This document shows positions 2 to 59,470 of a stretch of DNA of 64,000 bases, piece after piece. The notes below the pieces were generated by a model. The model had not been told where the DNA came from. It made no database searches and was given only the letters and a program-made list of their open reading frames with translations. Source of the stretch: Schmidtea nova (taxonomy: Eukaryota). How positions within the stretch are numbered: position 1 is the first letter of the stretch; each line of letters opens with the position of its first letter. The position numbers and the translations under genes were made by a program. The stretch covers positions 314,588,001 through 314,652,000 of the forward strand of contig CM097883.1 in NCBI GenBank assembly GCA_044892505.1. Reading direction: 5' to 3'.

Positions 2-112
2 CCAGGGTGAGCAACTAGGTTCGATGACCTCTGCATCTAACATCTTTTGTACCTCTTCTTCTGCTACTGCTTTTTGAGCTTCTGCCAGTTTATATGGTCT
101 TAATGCGATTGG
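2..112 (-). other. N-terminus of Ty3/gypsy reverse transcriptase
   Basis: ...LLMEYKDIFA...HTIPLTDETPIALRPYKLAEAQKAVAEEEVQKMLDAEVIEPSCSPW matches the canonical gypsy RT start (P...PY...L..G.I.PS.SPW). Confidence 0.9.
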
Positions 113-3100
113 CGTTTCGTCCGTCAACGGTATCGTGTGCAATGTTACATCACATGTTCCTAAATCCAAATCTGATGCTGCGAATATATCTTTATATTCC
201 ATCAACAGTTTCTGTAACTGTTCTTTTTGTCGTTCGTCTAACAACACACTGTCGATTTTCCATGGTAATTCGTCTTTGCTTTTCTCGTTCTTGTCTGGTA
301 TTTCGATTTCGGACATGGGTGTCAATTTACCCAATCTCTCATTCTCATATATTATCTTGTCCTCTTCGTCGAAGTTCACCAGATTGATCGGTATTTCTCC
401 TTCTTGGTTTATCGTGACCAATTCTCTTGCCATTGGTAATTCTTTCTTCACTTCGAACTTCTTACTTGGTTCGAATACCATATCTCCTTTTATTGTCGAA
501 TCGATCTTGACGTAGCACATCATTTCGTGTCTCGCTGGCACTACTATTTGTTCCGCACTTGCCACTTTAACTTTCATTCTGCAGATTTTTCCTGTTCTGT
601 CTTTTAGCTTCATTGCTCCTAGATCAATTACGATTTCCTTGAACAGGTCTGGCATCAGGTCAGTTCCAATAATACATGGTACACTCAGCGATGGTATTAC
701 AGCGATGTACGTGTTGATCTCTGCACCTCGATGCTTAATTTTTACAAACCATCTTCCGGCTACTTCTACTGTCTCCTGACTGCACGCGATTACATGTACA
801 TTCGTTTTCTCAATTTCTCCTTGGTTTTTCTCGGGTATATAGTTAATGTCGATTGCCGAAATATTCGCGCCTGTATCGATCATAGCTTCAATTTCTCTGC
901 CATTTATTTCTACGGTTGTTGTTAAGATCGGTCCCATATTTGTGGACATAACCGCTATCGTGTGCGTGTCTTCCAACGAGTTTACGCTTCCGCCTCGTTT
1001 TACTTTGCATCCTTCGGGAATTATCGGGTATATACTTGTCATCGGCATCATCTGCCTCATATTCGGCTTCGCTTTATATATCGGTTCGTTATACATTGAT
1101 TGGGGTGGAGCACTGTATCTCCAATTCTCAACCGCACTCTTTTCGGTATATTGTGGAATCTGGTTTATATTCGCTTGTCCTCCTCGATCGTCATCATCAT
1201 CTTCATCATTGCTTGAATCATCTTGCGTTCGATATCCTCTCACTCTTTCCCATAATCCTTTCCTTTCCTTCTTCAGTTGTCGCCTTGCTTGTTCGTCTTG
1301 TATTATCTTTTTGAATTTCCTTCCAACATCTTCATTTGTTCCTTTCATTTTCGCAAGTATCTTCAACAACCTCTTTATTCGATGTATGTCTTTTGAGTGT
1401 CCGTGTAACACCATCGTTTTCGCAAGGAATGGTAAAAACCCTACTACCATTTTCCAATTCACTTTCTTTTCTCTCTTGTAGATGTCGAAACACGCTAACA
1501 TTTGAGTTATTATCACTCTGACGATTTGTATTATCAGTATAACCCCCAGTATTCCAGCCATCATTTGTCCAAATATCAGGAATCTTCCCCACATTGCCTT
1601 CATCATATTTTCTGTGGCTTTCTTGAAATGTGCCGGTGACAACAACAGTTCGTAATTCGGTCCTTCTCGATAATTCGTTCCTCCCGTTATTGTTACGATA
1701 TTTGACAGTAATGCTTCTCTTCTTGCCGGGAATAATATATTCTGCCTTGCCGCTTCTAAATCTTTTGGACTATAGATTCCGTTGTTTGAGACATCTACGT
1801 CACTGAACTGTCTATCCTTTGACAACTGCATTAGCTCAAATTCTCTTGGTGCTAATACTTCAGTTCTTCCTGGGAACATAACCCATTTGCCATCTGGCTT
1901 CTGATAAAGCGGTCCGTACGCATTACTACAGTTGAATGGATTTGGTTCAAAACTTGGTGGATTGATGATTCTCGTCACCGGTTGAACGTATCGTACTTTT
2001 CCTTTATAATCGATTTCTAATTCATTTGTACATTGTCCAGGTTTCAACTGCGTTGTTGCTGCTAGCGATGCGTGTGTTTTTTCGCAAATGTATACGTACA
2101 TTGCTTCTCCGACCACTCTTCCGAAATGTCCTTCTCTCAGTGGTAATAACGGCATCGCGCTATCTGGATTCGTAATCGCTACGGCCAACTTTGTCTTCAA
2201 TATTTCTCGATTCAGTATACAATCGTTGTTTATCAGATCGTAGTACACTTTTTGTAATGAGGCTTGTCCTCTATGGAATAAGAAATCCATTTTATTATTC
2301 ACATATAAGTGTAGCTTGATATCCATTGTGTCGATCTTGGGTTTCGCATTCGGCACTTCTTGTTTCGACACGTATATTCCTGGATAGTTTGTTTCGTATA
2401 CTGTTGTACTGCACTTAAGGGTTGCTTTCCCTTTTATGAATCTCATTCCCACATCCTGATTTGTGGTTATCAACACTGTTGGTGTGGTTCTCATCTCTAT
2501 CCGTTTCTCTCTATGATCTGGTTTCAATTGTCTTTTGTTCTCTAAAGCCTCCTTGAGATGTTTTGCTCTAGCTTTGTCATCATCGTCTTCTTCTTGGAAG
2601 GTTTTTCCTTGAATTTCGTCGAACTTTGCTCCTTGTAGCAGTTGTAATTGACATTCGTTCACTTTTGGTTTATACACCAAAGTTGACATTCCCGTTTGAC
2701 ACATGCTTCTGTCAATTTTGCACATGGATAACGTTTTCATTTCTCCTGTTGTTGGTTCGAAGAATGCTTCGTAGCTTTTCAGTTCGACTATATACGTATC
2801 CATTACCACTAAGTTGGTTGCGGGTACTCCGAATATCGGATAGGTTTCTCCTTGACAATACCCTTCTCCTCCCGTAATTCGTCCTGCTACATAATACGTC
2901 TGCTGTAACATCATTCCTGGTTTTCCTTTTATCTTGATTTTATCTCTCGTTGTTACTTCTCCATGTTTAAATAATGCTTCGCAGTCTTCCCCTTGCAACA
3001 CGATTGGTTCTCTTTCGGTTCCTGGCATGACAATTGCTGAATAATGTCCTCTCCCACAATAGAATGCGAATCTCGTCTTCTGTACCTTGCATTCATTCAC

Positions 3101-4351
3101 CATTGTCTTTATTAGTTCTGCCTCTTGATACACGTGGTACCATTGTTCCTTTTTGATCTCTTTCAATTCTACTGGAGTTGCATCTTTGCATTGCTCCGTA
3201 CCTCTCAATGAGTACTTTTCTCCCAATTTCATTTGATCACAATCAAATACTTCAAATGTTGTTACACCTTCCGTGCTTAACAACCATACTAACATCATCA
3301 TGATTATCGAGTTTAAATTCAACGTCGATCTTCCGTTTCCTTGCATCGTTTGTCTATTCTCCATTTCTCTCAATACTCCTTCAAGTTTCTTTCTCATCAC
3401 GTTTGAACCCTCTTTTGTCTGGTTCTCTTTTATGAACTTTTCCCATCCTCCTTTCCTGAGGATATATGGTTCAATTTCTTTCTCGATAATCATCGCCGTA
3501 TTTTTAATATGTCTTCCCATCGGACTTGACTTCGGACTTCCTCGGCTTAGCGTTAACAAATTGTATATCGTATACGAGATTGCTACCATATATTTGCTGT
3601 CCGTTTCTGCTCCGTTAAGTAGCCTTTTTATTAACATCGTGGTTCCTTGCCAATCTAGATGATTCGATTTTGTTTTAGCTTTTATCAATTCTGGCATAAT
3701 CGGTGCTATTGCATTGTGTAGCATCCTTGCCTTTGTCCTAGGTTCGTTTATCCGCCACAAATTCTTTAATTCTGGGTCAATTATCGCTAACACATCCATT
3801 ATCGTTTTGGTGAGCCATTCCTCTCCTTGGCAGACTTGATTCTCCTCTTTGCCTCTGATTTCTGCGATTTTATCTAATTTCTTCAAGCAAATCTCCCATT
3901 GCTCTTGTCTCCTTTCTTCCCTTGATTTTGGGATTGTTGTTGCTGGATCTGTCTTTGGTCTTCCTCTTGGTCGTTTTTCCATTCCAGTTCCGGTTTCTAC
4001 AAATCTCGATGCTCTTCCGGTTTCTTCTGTAACGTCTCTTCCTTCGTTCGCTCGTTGTTCTAACCATCTTTCCATTTCTTGAGTAAACTGTGGTTGTTCT
4101 TGTTCGTCCTCCGAATCGTTTACCATTTCTATGACTACCTCCTGTTCCACTCCTTGATCGTCGATTTCTGCTGGTGACGTTATTGGCATCTCTATTATTC
4201 TGTCAAAAATATTCGCCGTTGGTTTTTGAGTTAACTTCGTTAGTTCTTCTATCGCCTCATCACTATCTGTTAGTATCTCATCGACGTCATACGCTTCTGG
4301 CGGTGTTCTCTCTCTCGTTTTTATTGGTGTTGTCCTTGCTTGTTCCTGGGG
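2..4351 (-). CDS. pol: Polyprotein part 2: acidic linker, Bcl-2-like domain, gB-like Env, protease, spacer, RT start (open to window edge)
   Basis: Manual translation gives a stop-free frame from 4351 (after TGA 4352-4354) to position 2; first ATG at 4189. It is absent from the ORF track because there is no stop in the window. Confidence 0.9.
653..934 (-). other. Retropepsin-type aspartic protease domain
   Basis: VEINGREIEAMIDTGANISAI (DTG at 869-877) ... CIIGTDLM. Confidence 0.93.
1409..3307 (-). other. env: Class III fusion glycoprotein (chuvirus-like / herpes gB-like Env) domain
   Basis: Hydrophobic signal, then FEVFDC, YCGRGHYSAIV, YVNNKMDFL, YYDLINNDCILNREIL, GEAMYVYIC, CTNELEI, PVTRII, NGIYSPKDLEAARQNILFP, and TM WGRFLIFGQMMAGILGVILIIQIVRVII. 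These blocks match recalled chuvirus-type G motifs in the same order. Confidence 0.85.
3422..3820 (-). other. Bcl-2-like helical domain
   Basis: BH2-like EPYILRKGGWEKF (GGW 3443-3451) and a degenerate BH1-like PELI...LDWQGTTMLI about 65 aa upstream, followed by a hydrophobic anchor. Confidence 0.55.
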
Positions 4352-4442: not shown

Positions 4443-4643
4443 CACTGTTAGCGTATTCATTAGATCCAATTGCACTGGTGTCAGTCAGATTTCAAAATTG
4501 TTATCCAACGATCGTCCTTGATGTTGCAGGTGGAATGGTAGTTCGTACATCAGTTTCTCTTTAACACTTTTCACTTTCTCTGTTAGCATCACCCAAAACT
4601 CTTCTTTTCTTTGATTCGGATACATTATCCTCAAATGTATTTT
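4443..4643 (-). other. Ubiquitin-like domain 2 (spans the TGA at 4485-4487)
   Basis: KIHLRIMYPNQRKEEFWVMLTEKVKSVKEKL...FHLQHQGRSLDNNFEI*LTPVQLDLMNTLTV follows the beta-grasp pattern. Confidence 0.5.
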
Positions 4644-7600
4644 CTGTGGCGTTTCTTCCGCAGACTCTTTGTTTCTCCACTTTTTTATTACATCGTCTAG
4701 TTGCTCCGGACACCACTCATTTACTCTCTTGTATTCTGCTATCGCTTTAGCTACTTTTCTCAAGTTCGTTATGTCTTCCCCATTTGTGATTATGAATTGT
4801 GCTAAGCCTTTTATTGTTTGTCTTTTTCCCCGAGTATTTCCTCTCAATAGCTCGATCAATTCACTCGTTTTCTGTTTCTCCAATTCTGCCCATATTGCTG
4901 CAGTTTCTGGTCCGTCTAAGTCCGTTGGTAATAACCTCCTTGTTACCATACATATCCGTTTCGTATTCCGTTCATATCTGTCTTCTCCTTCCGGATCTTC
5001 TTCATACACGCCTCTTTTCACTTTCCAACATTTCTCTTTGTTATCCCATTGTTTCTCTACTGGCGTCAATCGTCGTCTGTTAAGATCCAATTCTCCCAAT
5101 ATTGTCTCCCATTCTGGCTTCATCTGCCAGTTCCGATAAATTTCTACTATCTGCCTCAGCTTACGCATAACGTCCTCTCGTCGTTTCTTTTTCCTTTCCT
5201 CATCTCTTGGTGTTGCTCTTTGCACATCATCCATTCTGATGACGTGTATTGTCTGATAATTATCCCATATGCCGATTTTATACGCTCGTCTTTCATCGCG
5301 TTCATTCAGTAGATGTTCTTTGTATTTTATCGCTATGTCATCCTCAAATTCGTCTTCCCGTTCTCGTTGTAGTATCGTCTCATTGATGACCTCTACTATT
5401 TCCCCCACTTTACTATCTGGTATTACCTCAATTTGTTTTGTCTCTTCGTTTGGTAATCTCACGGTAATCTTCAGATCTGATACTTCTCCTCTTTTAAACA
5501 TTTCTTTTCCCATCTTTGCGATTAGCTTGTCCGTTTTGAAATTTGAATGTCTCGTTTGACTTGTATCTCGTATGTTCTCGATACATTGCTTCAAATTCTC
5601 ATACTCGCTTTTCGTCAGTTCCTTTCGATGTTTCTTGATTTGTTGGATGATCTGTTCTATCATCGTATTCAAATTCTCCGCCAAGATTCTTTCTTTTGCC
5701 TCTACCAACTGAGGTTTTATTCTCATCTCATAACACGTATTCGCTTCTTTGACGATTCCTTGTAAGTTCTCTTCCTTTTTGGTGTTGCATATAGATAGCG
5801 TTGTTATTTCTCCTGGCCAGATGCCTGTGTCTATCATATGCGTTCCTTTTCTCACCAATCCGTTTTCCGAATATATGAATTTGTCTTTGTACGAGCTTCC
5901 CAATCTGTCCTCAACCCATCGGTAAATTCCGTCTGTCATTGGGTTCCTTATCCAGATTCTCGGTGAACACTCGTTTATCCATATCTGTATTATGTATTCG
6001 TTCAGTGGTTCTTTCAATAGCCTCTCTATGAATTCTTGTATTACCCTCACTTCTCTTTCTTGTAACCACTCTTTATACTTCATCTGCCATACTGCTCGTA
6101 TAAACTTTCGATATCGTTTCGTGTCGATAAACTCCTCGTTATGGATCACTTCCAACGCGTTATCCATCAGCTTCTGAATTTCGTCTTCCGTTACTGACAA
6201 TGTTTCTATTGTCTCGACTACTTCCATCTTTTTATCCTCGTTTTCCGGTTCCTTTAGCATGTCTCCTGCCAGACTGCTAACTTCGCTGTCGTCTTCTTCA
6301 TCTGACAACTCTTGTCTTGGGTGTCTCAGCATCCCAATATGCGCGGTTGGTCTCGCTTCTTTTTTGCTAACTTCCTGTGTTAGTTCATTCTCGTTTCCCG
6401 TTATTTCAGCTTTTCCCATTCTTTTTCCTAATTCATCTATTTCTTCCAACCGTCTTCGTCTTATTTTCCCTTTAAATATTCGACTGATCCGGGTTTGATG
6501 TTTCACTGGTGGTGGGATTTTCTCCGGTTCCACCTCTCTGATGATCATCACGTTTATTTTTGTCTCCGTTACTCCCATGTCTTCCCATGTGTCAGTCATC
6601 TTCAATTTTACTTCTGGCAAATCCTCTGTTTGTAGGAATGCTTCTCTGGGCAGTTTCGTTACTCCCGGAATCATCTCATTTACTTTATTGAACAATCTTC
6701 CCACTTCTTCTTTTACATCGTATTTGAATCGCCACACGTGATCATTCGGCATGATCACCAACATTCCTCTTTGTTTGATTCTTACTTCCTCTTCTTGATT
6801 CGTTTCTTTTTCTGTTTCTTTTTCTGTTTTTGTTTCTTTTCTCACTTCTTCATCTTTTTTATTCTGTTCTGCAGTTTCTACTTCCTGATTCGCTTCTTCT
6901 TGTTTCTGCTCTTCGTTTCTTTTCTCTTTAACTTCGAGTTCATTTGACTCATCTTGCTGCTTCTCTTCCATCATTGCTCGCATCATGTTGATCCTTGGAT
7001 TTCCCTTTTTTAACTGTTGTAATCGTTGTTGCCTGACTTGTTCTTCTTCTCGTCGTACTCTAGCCCATTCTTGATTATGTTTCTGTTGGCTTTCTCTATT
7101 CTCTCTTTCGGCCTCAGCTTCTATTAACTGGATCATGTTTATCTTTGGTTGAGCAGCTTGCTGGCTTCCCTTTGCCATGCTTTCGATTATCTCGTGTAAT
7201 CTGGATACCTCCTGTCTCAACTTAGCTTCTTTCATACTAGCTTCGTTTGCACTGCTGTTTGGGTTGTTCCGTTGTTGACCTTGATTCCCATAGCTTGGTC
7301 GATTCCCGTAATTCGGTCTATTTCCACTGTTTGCCCAACTTCTCTGTTGATTACAGTCTTTTGACATGTGTCCGGTTTTTCCACATGTGTAACACGTTTT
7401 CCCATAACATCGATTCTCTGAGTGACCTTTTTGTCCACACAGTTTGCAGGCTACATTCTGAAAACAATCTTGTTGCCAATGTCCGTTTTTTCCACACGTC
7501 TGACATTGCCTATTCTGCCTGTCATTGTAACTGTTTCCTCCATTCGTGTTTACTGTGATATATCCATTATTTTTCCTCGCTGGCGGTTCTTTGAACAATC

Positions 7601-8222
7601 TCTGCGAATGGGGGATACTTTGATTCATGTTTCTTTTTCCTTGTTCTTCATCTTCTGTCGTTTTTCCCATTACCGCCGTAATTCTCATGTCATTCATTGC
7701 CATATGCAATTCGAATAGGTTGGCTGCTTCCAACGCTTCATCTACTGTTTTACATCCTTTGCATCCCACTTGTGCTCTGATGTCAGGTCTCCTGAGACCT
7801 CGTACGAATAACGCTGTCATCAATTCTTCGTCTACTGGGCTTCCTCTATTGAATGCCAGTTTCGCCAACTTTCTTAATTCGCTTGCGTACACCGCATTTG
7901 ACTCGTTTCTCCTTTGTTTTCTTGCTGAGAACTCATCGAACGCTTCGTTCAACACTTTATTTATCCCAAACGTCTGTTGGAAGAACTCCTTGATTGCTTC
8001 CCACGTTCTGGGTGGATTACTTCCCGATCTCTTCTCAATATACAGATCCAATGCGCTATCTTTCAAGTATAGCGGGATTCGATTCGCTAACGTTTCTGCA
8101 CTCCATCCGCATATATCCACGAATATGCCAAATTCTTTCAGGAACGTGTCCAATCTACTGGCGTCTCCATTAAATGGTTCGCCCTTGAATTTTTCTCTTA
8201 GATCCTCTCTGTGATCACTCAT
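4485..8222 (-). CDS. gag: Polyprotein part 1: Gag capsid, 3 CCHC zinc knuckles, coiled coil and accessory domains
   Basis: 1245 aa ORF with retrotransposon gag motifs (FNGD...FLKEF, W...K..F...F, FVRGL) and three CX2CX4HX4C at 7353-7505. The frame stays open upstream to 8705 except for one TGA at 8586-8588. Confidence 0.95.
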   Translation of the reverse strand: MSDHREDLREKFKGEPFNGDASRLDTFLKEFGIFVDICGWSAETLANRIPLYLKDSALDLYIEKRSGSNPPRTWEAIKEFFQQTFGINKVLNEAFDEFSARKQRRNESNAVYASELRKLAKLAFNRGSPVDEELMTALFVRGLRRPDIRAQVGCKGCKTVDEALEAANLFELHMAMNDMRITAVMGKTTEDEEQGKRNMNQSIPHSQRLFKEPPARKNNGYITVNTNGGNSYNDRQNRQCQTCGKNGHWQQDCFQNVACKLCGQKGHSENRCYGKTCYTCGKTGHMSKDCNQQRSWANSGNRPNYGNRPSYGNQGQQRNNPNSSANEASMKEAKLRQEVSRLHEIIESMAKGSQQAAQPKINMIQLIEAEAERENRESQQKHNQEWARVRREEEQVRQQRLQQLKKGNPRINMMRAMMEEKQQDESNELEVKEKRNEEQKQEEANQEVETAEQNKKDEEVRKETKTEKETEKETNQEEEVRIKQRGMLVIMPNDHVWRFKYDVKEEVGRLFNKVNEMIPGVTKLPREAFLQTEDLPEVKLKMTDTWEDMGVTETKINVMIIREVEPEKIPPPVKHQTRISRIFKGKIRRRRLEEIDELGKRMGKAEITGNENELTQEVSKKEARPTAHIGMLRHPRQELSDEEDDSEVSSLAGDMLKEPENEDKKMEVVETIETLSVTEDEIQKLMDNALEVIHNEEFIDTKRYRKFIRAVWQMKYKEWLQEREVRVIQEFIERLLKEPLNEYIIQIWINECSPRIWIRNPMTDGIYRWVEDRLGSSYKDKFIYSENGLVRKGTHMIDTGIWPGEITTLSICNTKKEENLQGIVKEANTCYEMRIKPQLVEAKERILAENLNTMIEQIIQQIKKHRKELTKSEYENLKQCIENIRDTSQTRHSNFKTDKLIAKMGKEMFKRGEVSDLKITVRLPNEETKQIEVIPDSKVGEIVEVINETILQREREDEFEDDIAIKYKEHLLNERDERRAYKIGIWDNYQTIHVIRMDDVQRATPRDEERKKKRREDVMRKLRQIVEIYRNWQMKPEWETILGELDLNRRRLTPVEKQWDNKEKCWKVKRGVYEEDPEGEDRYERNTKRICMVTRRLLPTDLDGPETAAIWAELEKQKTSELIELLRGNTRGKRQTIKGLAQFIITNGEDITNLRKVAKAIAEYKRVNEWCPEQLDDVIKKWRNKESAEETPQKIHLRIMYPNQRKEEFWVMLTEKVKSVKEKLMYELPFHLQHQGRSLDNNFEI
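5232..5471 (-). other. Ubiquitin-like domain 1
   Basis: KITVRLPNEETKQIEVIPDSKVGEIVEVI...IAIKYKEHLLNERDERRAYKIGIWDNYQTIHV follows the ubiquitin-fold pattern. Confidence 0.55.
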
Positions 8223-8705
8223 CCCGATTCCACTATCTTGGAATACTGTACTAGTTTTCTTTACTTCTAGTTCACCACTTGTTTCTGGATTCGACTCTTC
8301 TTCTTCACTACTCTCTGTTTCGTTATCTCTTGATTCGCTTCTTGTTCTGTTTTCCCTGACTAGTTCACTGTCTATCGTCTCTACTTCGTTTTGTACTTCT
8401 AGATCTTCTGGGGTTTCTTCTTGATTCTCTTTATTACTCGAATTATCGCTGATCTCTACTTGTTTGTTCTTTTGTTGCTTAGGCTTGTTACCTGTTCTTG
8501 TCCTTTTCGCTGCTTTTCTTTCTGCTTCCGTTAAGATTGGTATTATACCTGATCTTGTTTCTCGTCCCTCAATTTTGTCTATTCCTCAACTGCTTATATT
8601 CTCAACTGCTTTTCTACTCCGCTTTTGCTTTGCTTCTTCTTTGATTTGTTTCTTTTGATTGCTCTGACTGCTAGATTGCTTTGAATTGCTTGATTGATTT
8701 GTTTC

Positions 8706-8766
8706 CTTAAAACAAATAATCACTTACACGATACGTCCCCGTTATCGTGTTTCTCGTCCCTCTCAC
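8706..8766 (-). other. Predicted 61 nt spliceosomal intron after a 4-codon gag first exon (ATG at 8778)
   Basis: ATG ACT ACA CCC|GTGAGA...TTATTTGTTTTAAG|GAA ACA joins in phase 0 to the gag frame. Confidence 0.6.
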
Positions 8767-9097
8767 GGGTGTAGTCATAATTCATGAAGATCCCCATTTT
8801 TCCCATTTCCCTTGATTTTAAGTCTATTTAAATTATCTATGCAGTCGCATCAATTATCTATTCTTTATCAAATACACCAATTACTTTTCCCCAGTTTCCC
8901 AATTACTTTGTCGCTCAGCGCTCTTATTATCCCCTTTACTTTTCTCAGGCTTCTCTGGCTCTGAGTTCAAATCCCCCTTATCTGTCTACTACTCTATTTC
9001 CCAACTATTCGCTTTATCTCCTATTCGCACTACGTTTACTACTTCATTTCAATTCTCATCTCTACTCACCTTTACTTCAACTGACATCTCTCGTTGG

Positions 9098-9476
9098 CCT
9101 GCTGGGTTTTCCAGTCAGCGCTTTTAATCTCACCTTTTATCTCGAACTCTGTTTCTCTCAACTTCACTCATTATCCCATTAGCCTGCTGGGTTTTCCAGT
9201 CAGCGCTTTTAATCTCACCTTTTACTTCTGCTTCATTATTCTCGACCTCAATTGTCGTTTCATTAGCCTGCTGGGTTTTCCAGTCAGCGCTCTTATTATC
9301 CACCCTTTATCTCTTCACTGTCGACTTTTACCTGTTCTTTGCTCCGATGATCATCACTTTTGACCTGCTGGGTCTTCCAGTCAGCGTCCTCAATTTCACT
9401 ACTTTATTATTACTCACTTTTATTCTCTCGATCTTTCCTGATCGTTATCATTGACCTGCTGGGTTTTCCAGTCAGC
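9098..9476. repeat. Five 22 bp hairpin-forming repeats (CCTGCTGGGTTTTCCAGTCAGC) with 62-75 bp spacers
   Basis: Copies start at 9098, 9183, 9267, 9364 and 9455. Confidence 0.9.
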
Positions 9477-9803
9477 ACCCTTCACTTACTCACTTTACTT
9501 TGCTACTCCTCCTTGTATGCATACTTTAACATCATTAGGCCACATAATCAGCTTTACTCGCATTTATCAATACCCCGGTGCGCACCTTCAACTCTCTCAT
9601 TATTAATTCGGTTTCTTTCAACCCTTATTCCTCATTATTCGCTATTCATTTTCACTATTCATCATTTATCCTCATTATCATTTATTCATCTCCATTATCG
9701 CTTGTTGATCTTCACTATCCGGATAGTTTTATACGTAATTTTGTCCTCATCTGCCTCACTTCGTCGTCTTTCTCGTGGGCTTTTACTCAATATTTTATTT
9801 CGA

Positions 9804-10445
9804 ACGAGAACTATGCTCACTGCTGAGAACTATGCTCACTAACGAGAACTATGCTCACTGACGAGAACTATGCTCAATGACGAGAACTATGCTTACTGAC
9901 GAGAACTATGCTCACTAACGAGAACTATGCTCACTGACGAGAACTATGCTCAATGACGAGAACTATGCTCAATGACGAGAACTATGCTCACTAACGAGAA
10001 CTATGCTCACTGACGAGAACTATGCTCAATGACGAGAACTATGCTCACTAACGAGAACTATGCTCACTGACGAGAACTATGCTCACTGGCAAAACATGGT
10101 TGTTATGAGGGTTTTGCTTACTGATGGAAACTCTTTGCTCCGGGGATTATGTTCCCCGATGAGAACTATGCTCACTGATGGTGACTACAGGAATTATGCT
10201 TCCTGATGAGAACTACGCTCACTACGATGACTATGTTTATTGATGAGAACTACGCTCACTGATGAGGACTATGTTCGCTGTTAGAACTTACGTTTATTGA
10301 TGAGAACTCTGCTCACTACAAGATTTATATTTACGGACGAGAACTATGCTCACTATGGTGTTGTGTTTTATGACGAGACCTACGCTCACTAGGATGTTAT
10401 GTTTTATGACGAGACCTATGCTCACTATGAGACCTATGCTCACGA
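9804..10445. repeat. 19 bp tandem array (ACGAGAACTATGCTCACTG), degenerating rightwards
   Basis: About 15 near-perfect units to ~10090, then degenerate copies. Confidence 0.95.
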
Positions 10446-11142: not shown

Positions 11143-11601
11143 TTACAAGTACACTGTTATTTTCTCGGATACAGGTAGGTTGCACATAGGACATCGTTCA
11201 TTTATTTTACAGTCATTACAGAATCGAAAATGCCCACACGGCAACAACATTATCTGTATTTTGTTTATTTCACAGATGTAACACGTCAGATATTGTCTCG
11301 TATGTTCTGTTGTTATTCTTATCCACTCATCGTGTTTTGTTGCAATCTGTTGTTCTAGCCTGTGGCACTCGATATTCATCTCAGGGTTGTTTAATCGCTC
11401 TCTATACCACTGATATCGTGTTGCTGTATCCACTGTTATCTTATTCTCGCTTATGCTCATCATCATTTCGGCTCTTTCTGTGTTGTTTGTCGGTTCGTGG
11501 TATCCTCCTACCTCGAGTCGTTTTAACTTTCTCGTTATGGTCTCCACTGTTTCGTTGTTTGTCTCGAAAAACGTTTGCATTTCTTTTATTTTGTTCTCCA
11601 T
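11143..11601 (-). CDS. Coiled-coil + C-terminal RING-HC protein (IAP-type RING), putative E3 ligase
   Basis: CYICEINKIQIMLLPCGHFRFCNDCKINERCPMCNLPVSEKITVYL: C3HC4 with the LLPCGH signature at the extreme C-terminus. Confidence 0.85.
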   Translation of the reverse strand: MENKIKEMQTFFETNNETVETITRKLKRLEVGGYHEPTNNTERAEMMMSISENKITVDTATRYQWYRERLNNPEMNIECHRLEQQIATKHDEWIRITTEHTRQYLTCYICEINKIQIMLLPCGHFRFCNDCKINERCPMCNLPVSEKITVYL

Positions 11602-12135: not shown

Positions 12136-12153
12136 ATCCCGGCTGAGCCCCCA
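12136..12153 (-). promoter_or_regulatory. Primer binding site complementary to tRNA-Pro
   Basis: TGGGGGCTCAGCCGGGAT is 16/18 identical to the MLV PBS-Pro TGGGGGCTCGTCCGGGAT and lies directly after the LTR end AATT. Confidence 0.88.
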
Positions 12154-12313
12154 AATTTATGCTGGTGTGTTGGTTGGATTGACAACTGAGATCCTTATGA
12201 TTTTATACGTTAGGGTGATCTCGCCAACATAAAAACATTCCCCCCGCTGACACCCATGATGTATCCCTAACTACTCATCATGTTGGTGCTGTGTCAACGT
12301 TGTGAAATGACAA

Positions 12314-12382
12314 GGCAGGTGAGCAACCTTTCGGCTACTATTCCCTTGTTTATTCACGGGTCCACCACTACCGATAGAAGGT
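12314..12382 (-). ncRNA. Conserved structured RNA motif with GNRA hairpin (copy 1)
   Basis: CCTTCTATCGGTAG...GGACCCGT...TAG-TAGCC GAAA GGTTG-CTCACCTGCC; covarying relatives at 42278, 46364 and 52281. Confidence 0.55.
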
Positions 12383-12545
12383 GTCTGTGGCTTTCTTTCG
12401 GTCCCACTTATGCTCTTTTCTATTGTCCTAGGGTGATTCAATTTTATTACATCTGCGGCTTTAAATGAATCCGGGTTTTAGTTATATTCAATTCTCAGTC
12501 ATTCCACAAACAAACAAGACAAGTCAAATCATTCGTTTTATACAT

Positions 12546-13166
12546 TTATTTATAGTTCAACAATACAGAGGGTCGTATTACATTTAGTAGTTCTTGCTCG
12601 GATAGACCACTGAGCAAGTCTACTTCGATTCCAAGGCGATCTGCATACGCGCGTCTCTCCCTACGCTTTTTCGCTCCCAAGCGCTTCCGTCTCTTTGTTC
12701 GTTTCGAGCCTTCCAGAATGATTGGGGATGTTGGGGTAGTTGTGATTGGGATGGTTTCTATCTCCGTTTGGGTACTTGTTGTCATCGATATTGTGTCCAC
12801 CCACCTATTAAAGGTGCTAGTCCTGATCACTGGGCGTAATTGCTCGGTGATAAACTCCTTGGTTGATGCCCTCAAGTAATTCGACAGCTCCATCTTTAGG
12901 GCTGCTACCTCCCTAGCTTGCTCGTCGATTGTTCGCTCCGCTCTGTATCGGGCTTGCAGGATAGTTTTAACCCTCTCTGGGTTGAACCACGTGGCTTTAA
13001 TTCGCTGGTGCTCTTCGTTTAGTTGACGCAAGCGGTTTTCTAGGACTCGCGATCGTGCTTTATGCTCTTTGGCCTCTTGTTTGTAGTCCCTAGTCGGATG
13101 TTCACTCATCTCTGTAAAATGTACAATTAATCGGGTTATGTATGGTTTGTCTGTTCTCTCAGTCAC
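12546..13166 (-). CDS. LTR-encoded accessory protein B (coiled coil, Arg-rich motif, Leu-rich C-terminus)
   Basis: Intact ORF with homologs at 42580-43167 and 45815-46153; AATAAA overlaps the stop. Confidence 0.75.
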   Translation of the reverse strand: MTERTDKPYITRLIVHFTEMSEHPTRDYKQEAKEHKARSRVLENRLRQLNEEHQRIKATWFNPERVKTILQARYRAERTIDEQAREVAALKMELSNYLRASTKEFITEQLRPVIRTSTFNRWVDTISMTTSTQTEIETIPITTTPTSPIILEGSKRTKRRKRLGAKKRRERRAYADRLGIEVDLLSGLSEQELLNVIRPSVLLNYK

Positions 13167-13300
13167 TATCTTTATTATTAAACCGGTGTTTCACTCTCAG
13201 ATCACTTCATGCATTCAAAGACATAACAAAACCCAAAAATTAATACATTTATTTTTAATACACCTCTCATCTTTCTTCGAATGATCGATTTCCTTGCGAT

Positions 13301-13936
13301 TTAGATGAAGGTTCGTAATTCCTGGTCGGCCGTGTTCTCGTCACGACGGATTCCACTTTCGTAGTAGAACTCCGGGGCGGGGCTCCAACTTAACTTGTCC
13401 CGAAAGATGAATACCTCCCAGAGACGAAGGTCTTTGGGCTCGGGTTGTTGGTCCAACGAAACGCTTCCCGGCGCGTTTGAGTAGGCGAAGACTTCCCCAG
13501 TGTCGCCACACCGAGGCCTGTCTAGCAGCAGGTAACCGAGTTGATGTAGCTCTTTTCCGGACATCATTCCAGTACTTAGTAGCCAGCGGGGCTGCTGTGC
13601 TTCATCCACGAATTGGTAGAACCATCGGGGATTCTCCGGTTTGCTATGATCCGAGGAGGGTACCCAATCAGTATCTCCTTCCCACCGCAACTGTAGTCCA
13701 AACGCGCAAGCTGGGGTGCTAGCGGCTGAGCTCATGTGAGCCCTCATCCATCGTCGTAGGTGGCGACGTGATACTTCTGCGACCTTTCGAGGTGCTTCGT
13801 TCTCTCCTCTGATGTTTATGATCGTATTGGGTCGGATGACGGAGCGGGTGCGCCGTTTCTTACGAAGGATGGTGTCCTCTATCTTTATCGGGTGCGCGGT
13901 CATCGGCTTCTCTTGGAAATTCTCTAGTTTCACCAT
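13301..13936 (-). CDS. LTR-encoded accessory protein A (unknown family)
   Basis: Intact 211 aa ORF with homologs at 34627-35229 and 43252-43761. A TATAAATA lies ~60 nt upstream and an AATAAA downstream. Confidence 0.75.
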   Translation of the reverse strand: MVKLENFQEKPMTAHPIKIEDTILRKKRRTRSVIRPNTIINIRGENEAPRKVAEVSRRHLRRWMRAHMSSAASTPACAFGLQLRWEGDTDWVPSSDHSKPENPRWFYQFVDEAQQPRWLLSTGMMSGKELHQLGYLLLDRPRCGDTGEVFAYSNAPGSVSLDQQPEPKDLRLWEVFIFRDKLSWSPAPEFYYESGIRRDENTADQELRTFI

Positions 13937-14871
13937 AGTATTTCTAAAGAAGATGGTTGTTTGTTAACTATGGATTCTATGGTATAACGGGCCTATTTAT
14001 ATTAGTCAACCCACCCGTTATACTTAATTTTCAACACTCATGTTCAACCACTCAGCTTTAACAGTTTTTATTTATCGATAATACTATTTAATCACATTCA
14101 ATCTCATCAGTCGTTTTCAATTACTTCCTCATCTAACCAGCAATGATCATACCATGTCGGGTAATTCTCGTAAGTACCTGTGATCCGTACACGCTGGGGT
14201 TCATCATTTTATCAGTTCTCAATGCCTGTGATTTATTTATCATCTCTCTTGGCGATTAAACGCGTCTGACAGAGGTTATCGATTACCCTTAACCCTTGAT
14301 ACTAGGTTCACTATTCCCGAACTCGTAAGCGCTAATGTTGACATATACCTACCCTCGTCGTCACCTAATTCATCGGCACTAATATTATTCACTACACGTC
14401 TATCCCTCGTCTAGACTTCACCGCGATATATGTCCTTCCTATAAAACGGGTTTCACTTTGCGCTCGTTTACGACTACTAGTTTATACTCGATACCCTATC
14501 ATCGTGATGTATAACGTTTACATTAGATCATCTCTACCTTGATTTCGTTCATGATCATTAGGTCTTACTCGATACCCTATGTGCATTTAACCCCTTCCGC
14601 TTTCCAAATATTTAATACACCTATGGTCCCGCCGCATCAGCACCTCACAACCGAAAGATTGTGTTGCGCTGAGAGGCCCCAAGAATCCGTCAGGCTGTTA
14701 GGCCTCCGGAAAACCTTATGGATTTTAATATGGTTATAAACAATTATGAGGGTTTAAATACATCAATAACATAACTCCAAATTACCTTTTATTTTCGCTT
14801 CGAAATCGGTATTACAACGTTTTCAGTAAGTCACAAGAGCTTACACTTGGTAAAAAATGACATATTCAAAT

Positions 14872-14922
14872 ACTGATTTTACTTCAGTATTTATACTGAA
14901 CCGGTGTTGTTGGTTAGCCAAT
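14872..14922 (-). promoter_or_regulatory. CCAAT + TATA (TATAAATA 14895-14888) + TCAGT initiator-like promoter
   Basis: The same CAGTATAAATAC and CCAAT spacing occur at 44698-44732. Related TATA boxes are at 33068-33075 (+) and 53161-53168 (-). Confidence 0.6.
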
Positions 14923-15684
14923 CAGCATCGAGTATGTGTGTTTGATCATTATTCTGTGTTGCCGGCTTTTTGCTGCCTAACTTAACTCGCCGATTTGTTT
15001 GGTTAATCATGCGGTAAGTTTATTTTTTGTACGATTTAATTTTTATTTGATTTTGCTTTAGGTCTTCGGTGACATCCGCCCACGCGCTGTCATATTCCAA
15101 TTTTTTCTGCTTCGCATGAGTGAGTTTTGAAGATTTTTGTTGTTTTGATTAATATGTTATTTCTTTTAGATGTTGCCGCCTATTTTGTTACGCTTTGGTG
15201 TTGGTAATTTATTTTGTTGTTATTCTGTATTTAATTTATTTTATTGATTGTACATTATTTTCAGATGCTGCTCGATTTGGCTGGCCCAACAGAAGCAAAG
15301 ATTGCTGAAAGAAAATTCAAGCCAATTTTATTTATACTGAAGCTTTATCAAAGTTTATATAGTTTTCTAACTTACAATCTCCCTCGTCGACGGCTGCTAA
15401 ATTGTAAAGAAGCTAAAAAAGAAAAACTTTTCAAGTAACCTTTCGTGGTTTTTTATTATTTTGTTATTAATAAATATTAGTAATTTAAAATAGTGCTGTT
15501 TATTTTATTGTATCTTATATACTTTTATATTTGATTGTTATTATATCATATCAGTAACCGCACTACACAGCACACACCCCGAGTGTCGACACATTGCTAA
15601 CGTCTGACTCTCTCGGGATCTACAACTCTTCTACACATCCACCCAATCAACAAATTAAAAACTCAAATTAGAACAGCTCAAACA

Positions 15685-22538: not shown

Positions 22539-25252
22539 TAGTGTTTCTTCTCGAGAATTCTTTCTCGAGAAATTCTCGAGAAAATCGATAAAGTTATTAA
22601 GTAGCAATTCTCGAGAAATTTAGATATTTCTCGAGAAATATGTAACAAATATAATTAAGTGTATTATTTGAATAAAACTTTGTTATTTTGTGTAATTTTG
22701 AAAGTTTTAATAATTTACCGTTCTGTTTCGTTTTCTTATTCATCAGTGTCATACAACTTTTTTACAACACCGTTAGTTTTCTATTTTCTTATTCATCATT
22801 CTCTCATCCTCATATCTCAGTTGTTGTACCATACTTAATAATTCGGGGAATTCCCGATAGTATATTTGAATAATAAATAAATTATCAGTTGAGCAATTAC
22901 TATATAACTAATTTCATTGTGAAATAACAACTTGAAGTCATAAGTCTTGTTTTAGCGAAGTAATAATTAGAGTTTTGTATGTAAAAATATTTTTAATTAA
23001 AAAAAGGAAACCATATAACTATATAATAAATTTAATGTAAGTAGTTGTTTTATTATAAATACTGTTTTTAAAATAAGTCTAATTAAAAAAATAGAAACCA
23101 TTTACGCAGAAAATGAGTAAAATTTACCGGGACTGTTGGGAACATTTTAAAAAAAGTGAAAGTAATAAAGATTTGGCAATATGTAAAATATGTCTTAAAC
23201 CACTTTCATGCAAAGGTTCGGCGACTATTGGTCTGCGTAGGCATCTTGAAGGTTTACATGAGTATAAAAGAGAAGAAGAAAACAATTATGGTCAGAGTAC
23301 CTCAAAAAATGCAAAAAAATACAGGTATGGAGACAATCCAATTGAATCTTTCTTGAAACGACCAACTATTGGTGAATTAGTTTCAAAGTTAGCAGCTGTT
23401 GATGGAATATCGTTTCACAGAATTTCTAAAAGTGAATTTATTAGAACATCTATGAGTGGCAAAGGATTTAATTTACCACAGAACTCGACCAAAGTGATGC
23501 AATTAATGCTGAACTTTTATGAAGAAGTAAAACAACAGCTAATAAAAAAAATAATTAAACACAAAGATAATGGTAAGAAATTCAGTATATCCATTGATGA
23601 ATGAACAAGCATGAAAAATAAAAGATATATGGATATACCTTTATTATAATAACAAAGATTCAGACAATTTGGGGATGGTTCCTGTTGTTGGTAGTTGATC
23701 TGCAGAAAAAGCATTGGAATTAGTGAAAGAAAAATAAATCGTTTAATATCATATTTAATGACAACGTCGTAGCTACGATGAGTGATGGTGCTGCTGTGAT
23801 GCAGAAATTTGGACGATTATCTTCTCAATTTCACCAACTTTGCTACAATCACGGGTTGCATTTGGCTGTTCTGAAAGTATTTTTTGTCAAGAAGGGCTAT
23901 CCTGATAACTTTGCTTGTATCGAGGAATCTGATAACGAATCTGAAATAGAATATTTAGAAAATGAAAATAATAACTGACGACTCCGATATAGAAGTTGTG
24001 GAAGACGTTGATGTTTATTTGCAACCCCAAATCGAAAAAGCAATTAAATTCATAAGAAAAATATCAAAAATGTTTAAAATCTCCCCCGTTAAAAATGCTA
24101 TATTACAAAAATATGTAATGGAAGAGGAAAAAAAGAGCTAATGGTAATTTTAGACTGTTGGAACGATGGAACACGATGGAGGCTATGGTAGAAAGATTTG
24201 TACGAATTAGTGGCTCAATCAAAAAAGCATTATTGATTGAATTAAATTTGGGTAGTTTGTGGAATATTAGCAACATTAGCAACATTAGCAACATTAGCAA
24301 CATTAGCAATATTAGCAACATTAAAACCACTCCGTATTACAATTGAAAATCTTAGCCGAGAAGATTCTACATTATTAACTGCTGAAGGAGCTTTCAGGTT
24401 TTTATTTACAACTTTGGAAAAATTAAATACTAATTTAAGTCGAGATCTCCTTAATGCAGTTAGGGAGGAAATGTCTAAAAGGAGGGATTATACTTTAGTA
24501 TCGGTTATTAGGCTCCTACAGAATCCTGATTGTATGTCACATAAAGAAAATGATAGTTTCTTTGACATGGCACCAAAAAAAGAGATATATAAATTGGCTA
24601 AATCTATATCATCTAGAATTTTTGAAATTACAAACAGTGATAACAATAATACCGAAGAAATTGGTGACACTGAAAATGTTGAAGAATATCCAGATCGAGA
24701 AGAAGAGGTAAGTCTACAACAACAAATAAATTTTGCAATTACAAAAAGTTTACAAGAGTATGAAAGTCCGAATGCTAACAAATTTCAATCATTAGATGAG
24801 GAATTTAAAATATTTGAAGCAAATGGGAAGAGAACCTCAAATTTGCAGAATCTTTTGGATGCACTTCTCACCATTAAATCAACTTCTACGCAAAATGAGC
24901 GGAATTTTTCTATTGCAACAGATTTTGTTACCAAAAAAGAACCAGAATGGGAGATTCAACTTTGGACGCTCTGTGTTTCTTAAAACATTATTTTAAATCA
25001 CAAAAATGATTTAATTTATTATATTTTTATAAAATCTTTTATGTATTTTTGTAAAACTTTAAGAAATTATTTTTACGTTATTATTTTTTATTTTGTTGTA
25101 TAATAAAAATGTGAATTTCAGTTTATATTATACTGCATTAGATTTTTATTTTAATAAAATATTTTCTCGAGAAATCTCGAGAGATCTCGAGAAAAAAAAT
25201 ATGTGTTTTCTTTTCTCTAGAAATTAAAAAGGGTGAGAAATGAGGAACACTA
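22539..25252 (+). mobile_element. Decayed hAT element with BED zinc finger transposase
   Basis: TIRs TAGTGTTYC, subterminal TCTCGAGA clusters, BED finger (CKIC...LRRHLEGLH), DE*TS, MSDGA, CYNHGLHL, RWN, ERNFS. Multiple stops and frameshifts; 9 bp ATTAGCAAC expansion at 24266-24323. Confidence 0.9.
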
Positions 25253-38237: not shown

Positions 38238-41200
38238 CAGCCCTGGATTTACGAATAGGCACACTAGGCACCTGCCTAGGGCGGCAAATTTAGAGGGCGG
38301 CAAATTTAGAGGTCGGCAAAAAATTAGTATGTAACCGATAAGAAAAATTCAAATTTTCAAAAAATTAATTTTTCGTTTCTCTAGAATTGAATATGTAAAA
38401 ATTAATGTACAGAAAAAGTTTATATAATGTCATATTCATCGTTTTGTATGTATATGTATATAAAAATGTTTATGTTTAAATGAATACAACACCATATCAA
38501 ATTGAAAAAATAAATTCAAATTCAAATATTTTTTGTTCTAGTAGGCATAGACATTGGTATATTTGTTTTGTTATTGACAATTATTGACAATTATTGACAA
38601 CTTATTGTAGATACATAAGAAAAACATAATTTTATGCGTTTGTGTCCACTTGTGCCATTCATAAGTTGTTATTGGAGTCAAGCAGTCAAGAAATTCTTTT
38701 TGTTTGTAATTTATTAAGAAAGGCTACTGTTTTTTATTGCTGATTAATCTTAGTTTTCTCGCGGTTATATTTGCGTAAGTTTGCTTTCTCTGTTCAAATA
38801 TAAGTTTTCAAATTCATTTTGAAATTTTTTTTTAATCTTATTTAATTAAAATAAAGTTTTTATTCAGCTATTGAAATGAGTGACGGAAGGAAGAGATTAA
38901 GTGGTGCGAAGTATCGTCAGGAGGCCAAAGAGAAATTGGCAAAACAAAGAAAAATTATTGAACAATCTACGAAAATACAGTCGTACTTTAACATATGCTC
39001 AAGCTCAGGTGCTAATGGTAAAAATATTTCAGATCTAAATTTAATAGAAAATGTACCATCTTTGTCCACAGAAAATACCATTATTTTACCAGTTTCATCC
39101 ACAGAAAATACCGTTATTTCACCAGCTTTGTCCCCACAAAACATTAGTTCCAATTCTAGTTTAAATAAAACAACTGATGGTACTGAAATTGCCACAAACA
39201 TTGAAAATACGAACATCAGTACCATGATATCTATAAGTAATGATCCTGGTAATTGGAATATTGACGAATCCTTGATTGATTTTGTTGTAAAGTTTGGTTT
39301 CAAATCCAATAAGAATGTAGATTTCAGTACATCGAAAAAACTATTTGGTGACAAATATCGTTGTTTGAACGTGCAGAATTTTTCGAAAAAATTAAAAAAT
39401 GGAGAAACTCATGAAAGAGATTATTTATCGTATTCAGAGTCTGATAAGGCTCTATATCGTATTCCTTGTTATTTATTTAAAGATAATAGTTCTTTTTCTA
39501 AAAAGGGTGGATGCTCAGATTGGAAAAATATTTCACAATTATTAGAATCCCACGAAAATTCTTCTACACATCGCCGTTGTGCTATGATCATGATTGAAAG
39601 AAGTAACATGAGTGTAAGTGTGGAAACATTTTTGCTCAAAAATTTTAAAAACGAATTAGATTATTGGAAAAAGGTTTTAAATAGAGTTGTCTTTGTCATA
39701 AAGAAGCTATGTAGCCGAGGATTACCTCTCGAGGACACAGTGAAAAATTTTATGGCAATCACAATGGAAATTTTATGATGTCACTAGAAATGATTGCAGA
39801 ATATGATTCATTTTTGAAAGAGCACATACTAAAGTATGGAAACTGTGGTTCTGGAAAAACTTCATACATGTCAAAAAAAATATGTGATGAATTTATTAAT
39901 ATAATTGGAATAGAAGTGAGAAACAAAATAATCAGTGATATAAAAAAAGCAAATTATTTCTCTATAATTGTTGATTCGACACCCGATATTTCTCACACTG
40001 ACCAATTATCATTGATAATTCGATATGTTGATATTGCTAACGGCAAAACAGTGGAACGATTTTTAAATTTTTTCGACAATGTTGATCATAAAGCGGACGA
40101 AATGTTTGAAGTAATATTGAAGTTTTTGGATAAATTCAAATTAAATTTGGCAGATTGCAGGGGACAATCATATGATAATGCAAATAATATGTCCGGAATC
40201 TACAACGGCTTAAACGCTAAAATTTTAGGAATAAATTCACGTGCTATTTTTGTCCCATGTGCTTGCCATTCTATAAATTTAGTTGGTCAATGTGCTGCTG
40301 AGTGTTGCACAGAAGCTGTGCATTTTTTCATACTAATTCAAAAAATTTATAAATTCTTTAGTGTGTCAACAAAGCGGTGGGCTCTATTGAAAGCAAAATT
40401 AGGGCCAACCGAAAAACTACCGAAGTCCTTATCTGACACTCGTTGGTCAGCTAGATCAGATGCCTGCACAGCCTTGTTTCAAAATTATAAAGAGATAATT
40501 GATTTACTTAAAGAAATTGAAAGTGACAATTTGGAAAAAGTATTGACTCGTACTGAAGCTGGCGGATTATTAAGAAAAATGGAAAAAATGGAAATGGCAC
40601 TGCTCCTTACTATTTGGCAAACTATTTTAGAACGTTTTGATAGTGTAAATAAAAAATTACAAACCGCTAATACGAACCTGCTTACTGTTGTTCAGCTATA
40701 CGATTCGTTATTAGACTACTTTTTGGAAATGAAGCAAAAATTTTTTAGATTTCAAGAAAAAGCTTTGACAATTTCGGTTAGCTCTAGTTATGAACAGAAA
40801 AGAAATAGAAAAAGGAAAATGCATTTTGATGAATCCGAAGATGATGAGATTATAACAGATAGTCCAAATGAATTATTTAAAAAGAATGTATTTGATAAAA
40901 TTATATCAGTTTTGATAAAAGAATTACAAAAGCGTAAAAATTCATACAATTTTTTGAATGAAAAGTTTGGATATCTCGAAAATATATGTTCTATTGATAC
41001 CCATGTTATTATAAAAAAACAAAAGATCTGTACGAATTTTATGAAAGGGATTTGGACTGTAACGAACTAATGGAAGAAATTCTTCATTTTAAACAGCTTT
41101 TACAGAAAAGTGATTTATCCGACTCTGAAAGAAGTATCGCAAACCAGTTCAATTTTTTATTTAAAAAAAAATATAATAACGTGTTTCGAAATTTGGAAAT

Positions 41201-48349: not shown

Positions 48350-49472
48350 ATGCGTGGCAATATTGATGAACGTGGAAAAAAACTTTTCATAGGTGGACTT
48401 CACTTGAAAACCACCGAAGAAAGTCTAAAAGGATTTTATTCTCAATGGGGAGAAATAGTCGATGTCGTAGTAATGAGAGATCCTCAAACAGGCAAATCAC
48501 GTGGATTTGGATTCGTCACCTATTCCGATTCGTCATCAGTTGATGATGCTCAAAGCAATCGGCCCCATGAAGTAGATGGCATAAAAGTCGACTCAAAACG
48601 AGCAATGCCTAAAGAAGACACATCACCAGAATTCCATGCAACTGTTAACCGATTATTTGTCGGTAGACTCAAGCGAAATGTTGTTGCCGATGATTTGAGA
48701 CAATATTTCGGTGAATATGGGACTATTGCTGATGCAGTTATAATAAACAATTCTAATGGCGAATCACGGGGTTTTGGATTTGTTACTTTTGATGACACCG
48801 ACTCAGTTGATAAGATAATTGTCACTCGACCCCATCAATTGGATGGAAATCCCATAGAAGTTAAGAAAGCTCTACCGAGAGATGATAATAGTAGTAGTAA
48901 TAAATCTAACAGACAACAATCGAATCCAGGTAAAACTTTAATTTTTCATTTTTAAGAAATGAGATTTGATTAATCAAGTTATAATAGGAAATAGATCCAC
49001 ACCACGAGGAGGCTATAGCAATAGTGTTGCTTCAAATAACCGTTACTCACAAGACGACTATAGTTCTTCATACGGTAGCTATCCTACTGCTGCTAATAGT
49101 AGTAGCAGCACCTATAACAATAGGAACTATGGAACTACTACTGGTAGTGGTGGTTTTAATCAAGGATACTCACAAAACTATAGTAGCAGCAATAAGTTTA
49201 GCAACAACAATAGTAGATTAAGTGACAGTTTCGAAAATAACGAACTCAGTTATAGTCAACCAACATACGCTAATGAAACTAGTTACAACAGTTACGGACA
49301 ATATGATACACCTAACCCCCCTTCGAGTCGATATGGTTATCCTCCATACAATAGTATTGGTGGTGGTGGTATGGGTGGTGAGTATAATCAAAGACAAGGC
49401 GGTGGTCCAATGAGGGGAGCGCCAAGACCCAGTAGGGGTGGCGCTGGTGGATATGGAAATTATCCTTATTAA
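48350..49472 (+). CDS. hnRNP A/B-family RNA-binding protein (2 RRMs + low-complexity tail), 2 coding exons
   Basis: RNP2/RNP1 LFIGGL/RGFGFVTY and LFVGRL/RGFGFVTF. Phase-1 GT-AG intron 48930-48987 (58 nt); spliced product 354 aa; AATAAA at 49571. Confidence 0.93.
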
Positions 49473-58360: not shown

Positions 58361-58410
58361 CTACAAAATAAAATACACTTTTAACCATTTGGGTGGCTGT
58401 CACCGCTCAC
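58361..58410 (-). other. Predicted 50 nt intron upstream of element 2 gag
   Basis: CTGG|GTGAGC...TATTTTATTTTGTAG|ATTTC restores a DFNQKTNQATNSSQ N-terminus homologous to element 1. Confidence 0.55.
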
Positions 58411-59184: not shown

Positions 59185-59470
59185 TTATTTTATGCCCCTT
59201 TTAATATATTGACGGCTCTATATGTCCCTTGGCCTCAATTTTATTTTATGTCCCTTTTAATATATTCAAGGCTCTATATGTCCCTTGGCCTCAATTTTAT
59301 TTTATGTCCCTTTTAATATATTCATGGCTCTATATGTCCCTTGGCCTCAATTTTATTTTATGTTCCTTTTAATATATTCATGGCTCTATATGTCCCTTGG
59401 CCTCAATTTTATTGTATGTCCCTTTTAATATATTCATGGCTCTATATGTCCTTTGGCCTCAATTTTATTT
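59185..59470. repeat. 56 bp tandem array (~5 copies)
   Basis: TTGGCCTCAA recurs at 59285, 59341 and 59397. Confidence 0.93.

Follow-up and report, generated by a model that had tools for sequence, protein, structure and literature searches.

The locus described here raises the question of how the Gag protein of a giant retroelement obtains its start codon and, with it, the old question of how retroelement RNA is divided between translation and copying. The window, by which we mean the whole stretch of 64,000 nucleotides of Schmidtea nova DNA that was analysed, contains two related elements. A sequence-only reading had placed the Gag start codon of the first (element 1) on an exon of four codons, MTTP, joined to Gag by removal of a 61-nt intron, had proposed a comparable 50-nt intron in the second (element 2), and had concluded that separate RNA pools are translated and copied.

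Element 1 is an LTR retroelement of ~29.1 kb on the minus strand, as are all of its features given below, and most of its pol lies beyond the window. Its 5' LTR (12160-15291; 3,132 bp, TG..CA) is 99.87% identical to the 3' LTR, found outside the window (L175), and a 4-bp target duplication is present. The LTR carries two genes, LTR gene 1 (13301-13943; 211 aa) and LTR gene 2 (12546-13111; 187 aa), with acceptors 7 nt and 2 nt ahead of their respective ATGs. Further along are a primer-binding site (PBS; 12136-12153), identical in 8/9 relatives fetched and presumably of the tRNA-Pro type, a RING-finger accessory gene (11143-11601; 152 aa) with an acceptor-like AG 3 nt ahead of its ATG, Gag with capsid, CCHC knuckles and a long tail (4485-8222), and a fusion glycoprotein, protease and the start of RT (2-4351). 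In the window copy the gag-env frame is interrupted at 4487-4351, where the DNA runs differ from the window. The fusion glycoprotein (PF24664, E 3e-72) lies ahead of the protease, that is, between gag and pol, and RVP (protease), RVT_1, RT_RNaseH, Integrase_H2C2 and rve occur in that order, which is the Ty3/gypsy order PR-RT-RNase H-integrase. An ankyrin region is found downstream of the integrase, outside the window. After pol, L061 (1351-2778 / 101-1288, minus strand) holds a TRAF-like gene with RING, zinc finger and MATH domains, as well as a second frame of 396 codons without a Pfam match. Ankyrin, MATH/TRAF and RING cargo of the Burro type are therefore all present in element 1; BIR and BCL2-like domains were absent from the 19 ORFs scanned, a set that stops 4 kb before the end of the internal region. 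A search for homologous proteins with Gag gave no match among 4,056 candidates, and a search of representative sequences gave distant Gags only, none at E 1e-30. Judged by its sequence, element 1 is a Burro-like giant Ty3/gypsy element.

Several other observations were made in and around the two elements. An invariant GCTCACCTGCC is present near the LTR end (12313-12323) and at the matching place in nine relatives; on the opposite strand it reads as a perfect donor, and pairing with sequence upstream may occur. The leaders of both elements are packed with tandem and dispersed repeats (9747-10365, 9071-9497, 59129-59531 and 61430-62484), with units of 19, about 85, 56 and about 39 nt whose sequences vary by family. 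Run X2, labelled organism B, carries both elements (8143-9091 and 57614-58684) at a depth of 3-4 and >95% identity, which would reflect either contamination or a shared recent element. Frames with a BED zinc finger and DUF4371 at 23095-23604 and 38855-41070 are probably DNA-transposon remnants.

The letters of the proposed short exon are as claimed, with an ATG at 8778, an exon of 12 nt (8767-8778), GT at 8766 and AG at 8706, giving 61 nt. The intron would be similar in size to a host intron, whose predicted length of 58 nt was also correctly read (GT-AG, 48930-48987, matching phases). This intron lies in a gene with two RRMs (48350-49472) that we take to be hnRNP A1-like, and the runs X1-X4 behave as DNA, with a contig that spans the host intron without a gap and flat depth outside repeats; none of the joints listed for these runs falls at either proposed intron, a result that speaks neither for nor against splicing. 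Sixty loci were supplied for element 1, and after 5 were dropped as duplicate or partial, 55 distinct copies were left, with the ATG in 54/55 and both GTGAGA and the AG in 55/55. However, the Gag frame past the acceptor meets a TGA (8586-8588) at codon 40, so that the 61-nt splice does not open Gag as had been claimed. This TGA was considered as a mutation private to the window copy, and this was rejected since it is present in 55/55 distinct copies. Among the best 30 matches it is the first stop after the acceptor in 29, with an earlier stop in one.

For comparison beyond element 1, a capsid-motif pattern with 687 matches was used, the first 30 of which fall into six families that are 69-87% identical in the core; the family alignment comprises 22 of these 30, one of them mis-anchored. 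One other family shares the ATG, the three codons, the GT and phase 0. Conservation of the splice sites had been put forward as a check, and here the acceptor stood (6/6 families) but the donor did not, GT being present in three of the five alignable families, replaced by GA in one and deleted in one, with element 2 not alignable at this place. The ATG is found in 2/6 families and is missing in 3 of the 5 alignable ones. Stop read-through after the acceptor was also rejected, as the families carry TGA, TAA or TAG at the same place, which makes read-through implausible. Neither the layout nor the donor is distinctive, because an ATG, a short exon and a GT at intron distance are found at 26% of arbitrary 3' points in the leader (chance level) and 32% of 228 GT sites score at least as high as the 3.8 bits of the 8766 donor (hand-set weights). 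A perfect GTAAGT at 8727 was rejected as a donor because other families lack it. The finding that a short exon opens Gag is thus not supported: the stop is fixed, the donor and ATG are missing in some families and the acceptor phase is variable.

Conservation in this region is not limited to the splice sites and spans an entire block of 160 nt (8700-8860), which is non-coding and contains both the proposed exon and the 61-nt intron. Almost no variants in the block are shared between copies (0 in 61 nt, 14.5 expected). Inside the proposed intron is an 8-bp hairpin (8726-8750) in which 93% of cells are paired and two pairs are changed on both sides, as seen in 11 related sequences that represent few independent events. 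Folds of the whole region showed no clear excess over shuffles (z -1.15 and -1.27). We infer that the block is a candidate packaging or splice-control RNA element, confined to the RNA that keeps the intron.

Element 2 (53800-62700), a Gag-only derivative, carries several CCHC clusters together with a 3' LTR, and its capsid core DNA is 74% identical to that of element 1. No primer site was found at the 5' end of this copy; its relatives L140 and L141 have one. The proposed intron (58361-58410, minus strand) is correct as to its letters (GT at 58410, AG at 58361, 50 nt); in the alignment its acceptor corresponds to 8706, and the GT is part of a hairpin stem. Splicing here would not restore the Gag N-terminus: in 30/30 copies the 30 nt ahead of the GT lack an ATG, and in 30/30 the joined sequence continues in a frame other than that of Gag and meets a stop about 30 codons later. 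The Gag frame of element 2 has its own stop about 48 codons past the acceptor, again in 30/30 copies (in the window a TGA at 58216-58218, minus strand), and the next ATG after the acceptor is at 57843. The homology that had been seen between the N/Q/S-rich N-termini of the two elements disappeared on alignment, with a score of 35 against a shuffle mean of 36 (p 0.62).

The feature that all families do share is a T-rich tract ending in AG, a 3' splice acceptor ahead of gag (8706-8721), as found in 6/6 families in the alignment of 22. On 12.1 kb of the element 1 minus strand, 8706 is the sole AG with at least 8 T in the preceding 12 nt, and it is intact in all 100 listed of 115 exact matches. 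Its phase relative to Gag is by family 0, 0, 0, 1 or 2, 0 and 2, and an in-frame stop follows it in every family. Since the phase is variable and the stop is universal, 8706 is best read as a leader acceptor and not as a coding junction. Consistent with this, the 480-650 nt between the acceptor and the conserved Met (8222) contain no ATG in any frame in 20/23 copies outside element 2, with one ATG in each of the other 3, and are ATG-free in 3/4 element 2 copies, 3 of the 30 loci being unscorable. Stretches of the same length upstream, or out of frame downstream, contain about 10 ATGs (about 5 in element 2), and shuffles 3-7. The depletion begins at the acceptor; the stretch between it and the PBS has 91 ATGs, of which the last 500 nt hold ten. 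Since a 61-nt intron would leave all 91 in the message, either a donor near the cap or another route of entry is needed. A donor just behind the PBS was rejected because it is not conserved, and a second acceptor at the AG after the ATT described below because this AG is missing in several copies.

A donor near the cap can be found in the LTR. A TATA box (14888-14895) with a CCAAT-type motif ahead of it is followed by a probable leader exon (14786-14858), which is ATG-free and whose 5' end is placed from the TATA box, and by the leader donor AAG/GTAATT (14780-14785), the top-scoring donor in the LTR (hand-set weights). An ATG at 14863, at the presumed cap, meets a stop within 10 codons. The CCAAT/TATA layout is present in 8/10 related 5' regions, and two regions of the element 2 family share the TATA motif only; among the related 5' regions examined, L135 and L139 had no promoter motif. 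A donor-like GT recurs across families 103-221 nt past the TATA box, the candidate in L137 being weak (5.2-5.4 bits, hand-set weights).

A screen for spliced copies, in which the leader end had to be followed by something other than GT, had a single match, the solo LTR L176. This LTR follows the window sequence from 15291, leaves it precisely at 14786 and resumes 9 nt upstream of the start codon of LTR gene 1. At the junction TCAG is present in 24/24 nearest relatives fetched, and 19/24 have AAATAAAAG/GT 887-1,115 nt upstream. L176 therefore represents the exact loss of a GT-AG intron extending from the leader donor to the acceptor of LTR gene 1, not to that of gag, which points to donor 14785 being used. 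It is the one copy that bears on the use of this donor, at an acceptor other than gag's, and, this being a single copy, a deletion between two AG dinucleotides could mimic intron loss. The splice to LTR gene 1 keeps the PBS. The locus itself (L176/L202, at G000:C2:354422004-354424290) is a solo LTR with a 4-bp target duplication, 89% alike to the window LTR in the leader and 74-77% in the gene part; it may be a subfamily recombinant, and it implies a very long R region.

We propose that the acceptor at 8706 is joined to this same donor. Transcription would start near 14860, and the leader donor would be spliced to an acceptor ahead of each gene, the splice to 8706 yielding the Gag-Env-Pol message. 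The junction itself, 14785 to 8706 (14786/8705), we consider likely. The 6,080-nt intron would take out both LTR genes, the PBS, the RING gene, the ATGs between PBS and acceptor, and the hairpin block. This would mean that the Gag message, with its PBS spliced out, could neither be reverse-transcribed nor serve as genome. Ribosomes would scan the ATG-free leader, start weakly at an AUU at 8573 and otherwise start at AUG 8222. The RNA that keeps the intron would alone be packaged, perhaps through block 8860-8700, and copied, with the proteins supplied in trans, and replication in trans would suit Gag-only derivatives such as element 2. The proposal as a whole, a Gag(-Env-Pol) message that lacks the PBS and on which translation starts at AUG 8222 and in part at AUU 8573, is in our judgement probable, if slightly less so than the junction. 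Separate pools of translated and copied RNA, as had been suggested, fit this evidence; they would arise through a far longer leader intron and not through the four-codon exon. A more sweeping version, in which the retroviral rule is inverted so that Gag, Env and Pol come solely from RNA without primer site and packaging block and always act in trans, with Gag made in two lengths (AUU and AUG) in two distant clades, is offered tentatively and may well be wrong.

As to the start codon, the first ATG past the acceptor (8220-8222) lies 13 codons before the capsid motif GEPF, and a Met at this distance is kept in 5/6 families and in 55/55 element 1 copies. Upstream of it, in frame, is an ATT in the context AAA-ATT-G (8571-8573), a candidate non-AUG start, which would add an extension of 117 codons (8223-8573), basic then acidic, ATG-free and with a weak coding signature. 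In-frame AAATTG is found in 21/23 copies, 4-6 codons past a stop, and the extension is 117-194 codons long across families. Shared variants in the extension are synonymous in 30/71 cases (0.27 expected, p 0.004), the corresponding shares being 4/20 between acceptor and TGA, 24/97 upstream and 51/56 in the core, and between families the synonymous changes number 115/263. Indels shared by copies, and the length differences between families, stay in frame. DSGI(E/G)M, usually followed by S, is found just before and at the conserved Met (8220-8237), with DSGI kept through silent changes; we take this motif to resemble a beta-TrCP degron.

These data have to be weighed against an alternative in which splicing occurs as we propose but Gag starts from AUG 8222 alone and the upstream frame is untranslated or a relic. 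The conserved Met favours it, as does the lack of coding signal between families in the first 25 codons past the ATT (11 synonymous and 32 non-synonymous changes, from 6 non-independent pairs), so that the exact start cannot be placed. In element 2, furthermore, AAATTG is out of frame in 3/4 copies and a coding signal is lacking from the extension (8/25). Against it stand the synonymous excess within and between families, the in-frame length variants and the silent changes in the DSGI motif. By the features that mark a start of the glyco-Gag type, a near-cognate context and ATG depletion are present; a coding signal is seen for the extension as a whole, but its first 25 codons show none in comparisons between families. 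A distant fusion-protein family (L122-L132), with frames of about 3,400 codons, has a comparable arrangement: in 10/11 loci the frame opens with a stop, ATA-ATT-GAT, TTTAG and a Y-x-L-R-S motif, with the first Met at codon 34-38. There 546-692 ATG-free nt lie ahead of the ATT, and of the changes past it 5 are synonymous and 3 non-synonymous, compared with 0 and 6 on its upstream side; the letters at this ATT could, however, be an acceptor instead of a start. Overall we consider the chances about evenly balanced that Gag starts partly at AUU 8573 besides AUG 8222, and a start at AUG 8222 alone as somewhat less probable than that; this last estimate concerns the start codon only.

Two further explanations dispense with the splice from donor 14785 to 8706, and we consider both unlikely, to the same degree. 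In one, a host spliced leader would be trans-spliced onto 8706 and so resolve a polycistronic transcript, as at the SL1 site of the Caenorhabditis elegans element Cer1 (PMC3315495, available in part). This would account for a conserved acceptor without a conserved donor nearby and for acceptors ahead of each accessory ATG, and flatworm leaders end in AUG according to the accessible portion of PMC9851317. Yet the LTR offers a donor in cis, which is precisely joined in L176, and translation from a leader AUG placed at 8705 would end at the fixed stop, in a phase that varies by family. In the other, there would be no splicing at all: the T-rich AG would belong to a structured element for packaging or internal entry, and full-length RNA would serve as the Gag message through internal initiation or shunting. 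The block is indeed conserved beyond what splice sites need and contains a covarying hairpin, and an internal entry site would also give ATG depletion. The search for intron-less gag copies bears on this explanation. For element 1 there were 0/116 matches, the sole pattern match (at the place of L084) being a 1-nt insertion variant; none was found by pattern for element 2, and a third family gave one point variant only, as did the RING acceptor, with no other match. A junction with T at the position tested would escape the patterns used at the gag and RING acceptors. Such a result is expected without splicing, but also if gag is spliced as proposed, since a message that has lost its PBS could not be copied. 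Speaking against the absence of splicing, the tract ends in AG in 6/6 families, it resembles the acceptor joined in L176 and those ahead of other genes, and the ATG depletion begins at this AG.

Least probable is the explanation with which we began, that a 61-nt intron joins MTTP to Gag and so provides its start codon: in spite of the kept motifs, the second family with phase 0 and the host-like size, it would require read-through of a stop that is fixed in all copies and differs in type among families, or else produce an upstream ORF of 43 codons, on an exon with ten ATGs close upstream and in a stretch where variants up to the stop show no synonymous bias.

If the proposed leader splice is true, an unprimable Gag-Pol message would remove cis preference, and this could explain both the kilobases of cargo genes ahead of gag and the spread of Gag-only derivatives such as element 2. 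It also carries the warning that first-ATG and stop-to-stop frames misplace the Gag start.

Most of the papers compared below were available in part, and our statements about them extend to those parts. Burro/GYPSM1 of planarians (PMC6431247) is, like element 1, about 30 kb in length, with long LTRs and a CCHC Gag, and shares with it a mononegavirus-like fusion protein between gag and pol and ankyrin, MATH/TRAF and RING cargo; the likeness is one of description, and the accessible description is silent on splicing and start codons. Errantiviruses of the GAG-ENV-POL type with an HSV/gB-type env, found in Platyhelminthes, Nematoda and Bryozoa (PMC13524379), have the same gene order and class of fusion protein, and the part of the main text available makes no mention of splicing or read-through. 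Within limited coverage that lacked the original Burro papers, no paper was found that deals with how Burro-type gag is spliced or which start codon it uses, or with a Gag-Pol splice that removes the PBS, and the available parts of PMC2911113, PMC8532177 and PMC13465017 contain nothing on these points. Cer1 is a gypsy element with consensus splice sites, an SL1 acceptor and both spliced and unspliced RNAs, but its GAG-POL is encoded by an apparently unspliced 8-kb RNA (PMC3315495), whereas in element 1 a spliced RNA would encode it.

BARE and the Ty1/copia elements of Arabidopsis (PMC3735527, PMC5580714) resemble the proposal in that translated and packaged RNA form separate pools, a Gag message is spliced and a parasitic subfamily exists. 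Their splice, however, produces a Gag-only subgenomic RNA, while that of element 1 would trim the leader and PBS from the message for the whole polyprotein. Foamy viruses (PMC7828637) and complex retroviruses similarly use one major 5' donor with several acceptors. In foamy viruses it is Pol and Env that are spliced (PMC7828637), and retroviruses generally make Gag from unspliced RNA (PMC5035971), whereas in element 1 the Gag message would be the spliced one. The glyco-Gag of MLV (PMC5778647) is likewise an N-terminally extended Gag with a non-AUG start and a generally AUG-free extension, but it uses CUG and a signal peptide, where element 1 has a candidate AUU and a basic and acidic extension. 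Separate RNA pools, spliced Gag RNAs, donors with multiple acceptors and extended Gag from a non-AUG start are thus already known, and in the compared systems, so far as these sources go, Gag-Pol is unspliced or the splice shortens the coding region. What element 1 would add is a splice that removes the primer site from the Gag-Pol message.
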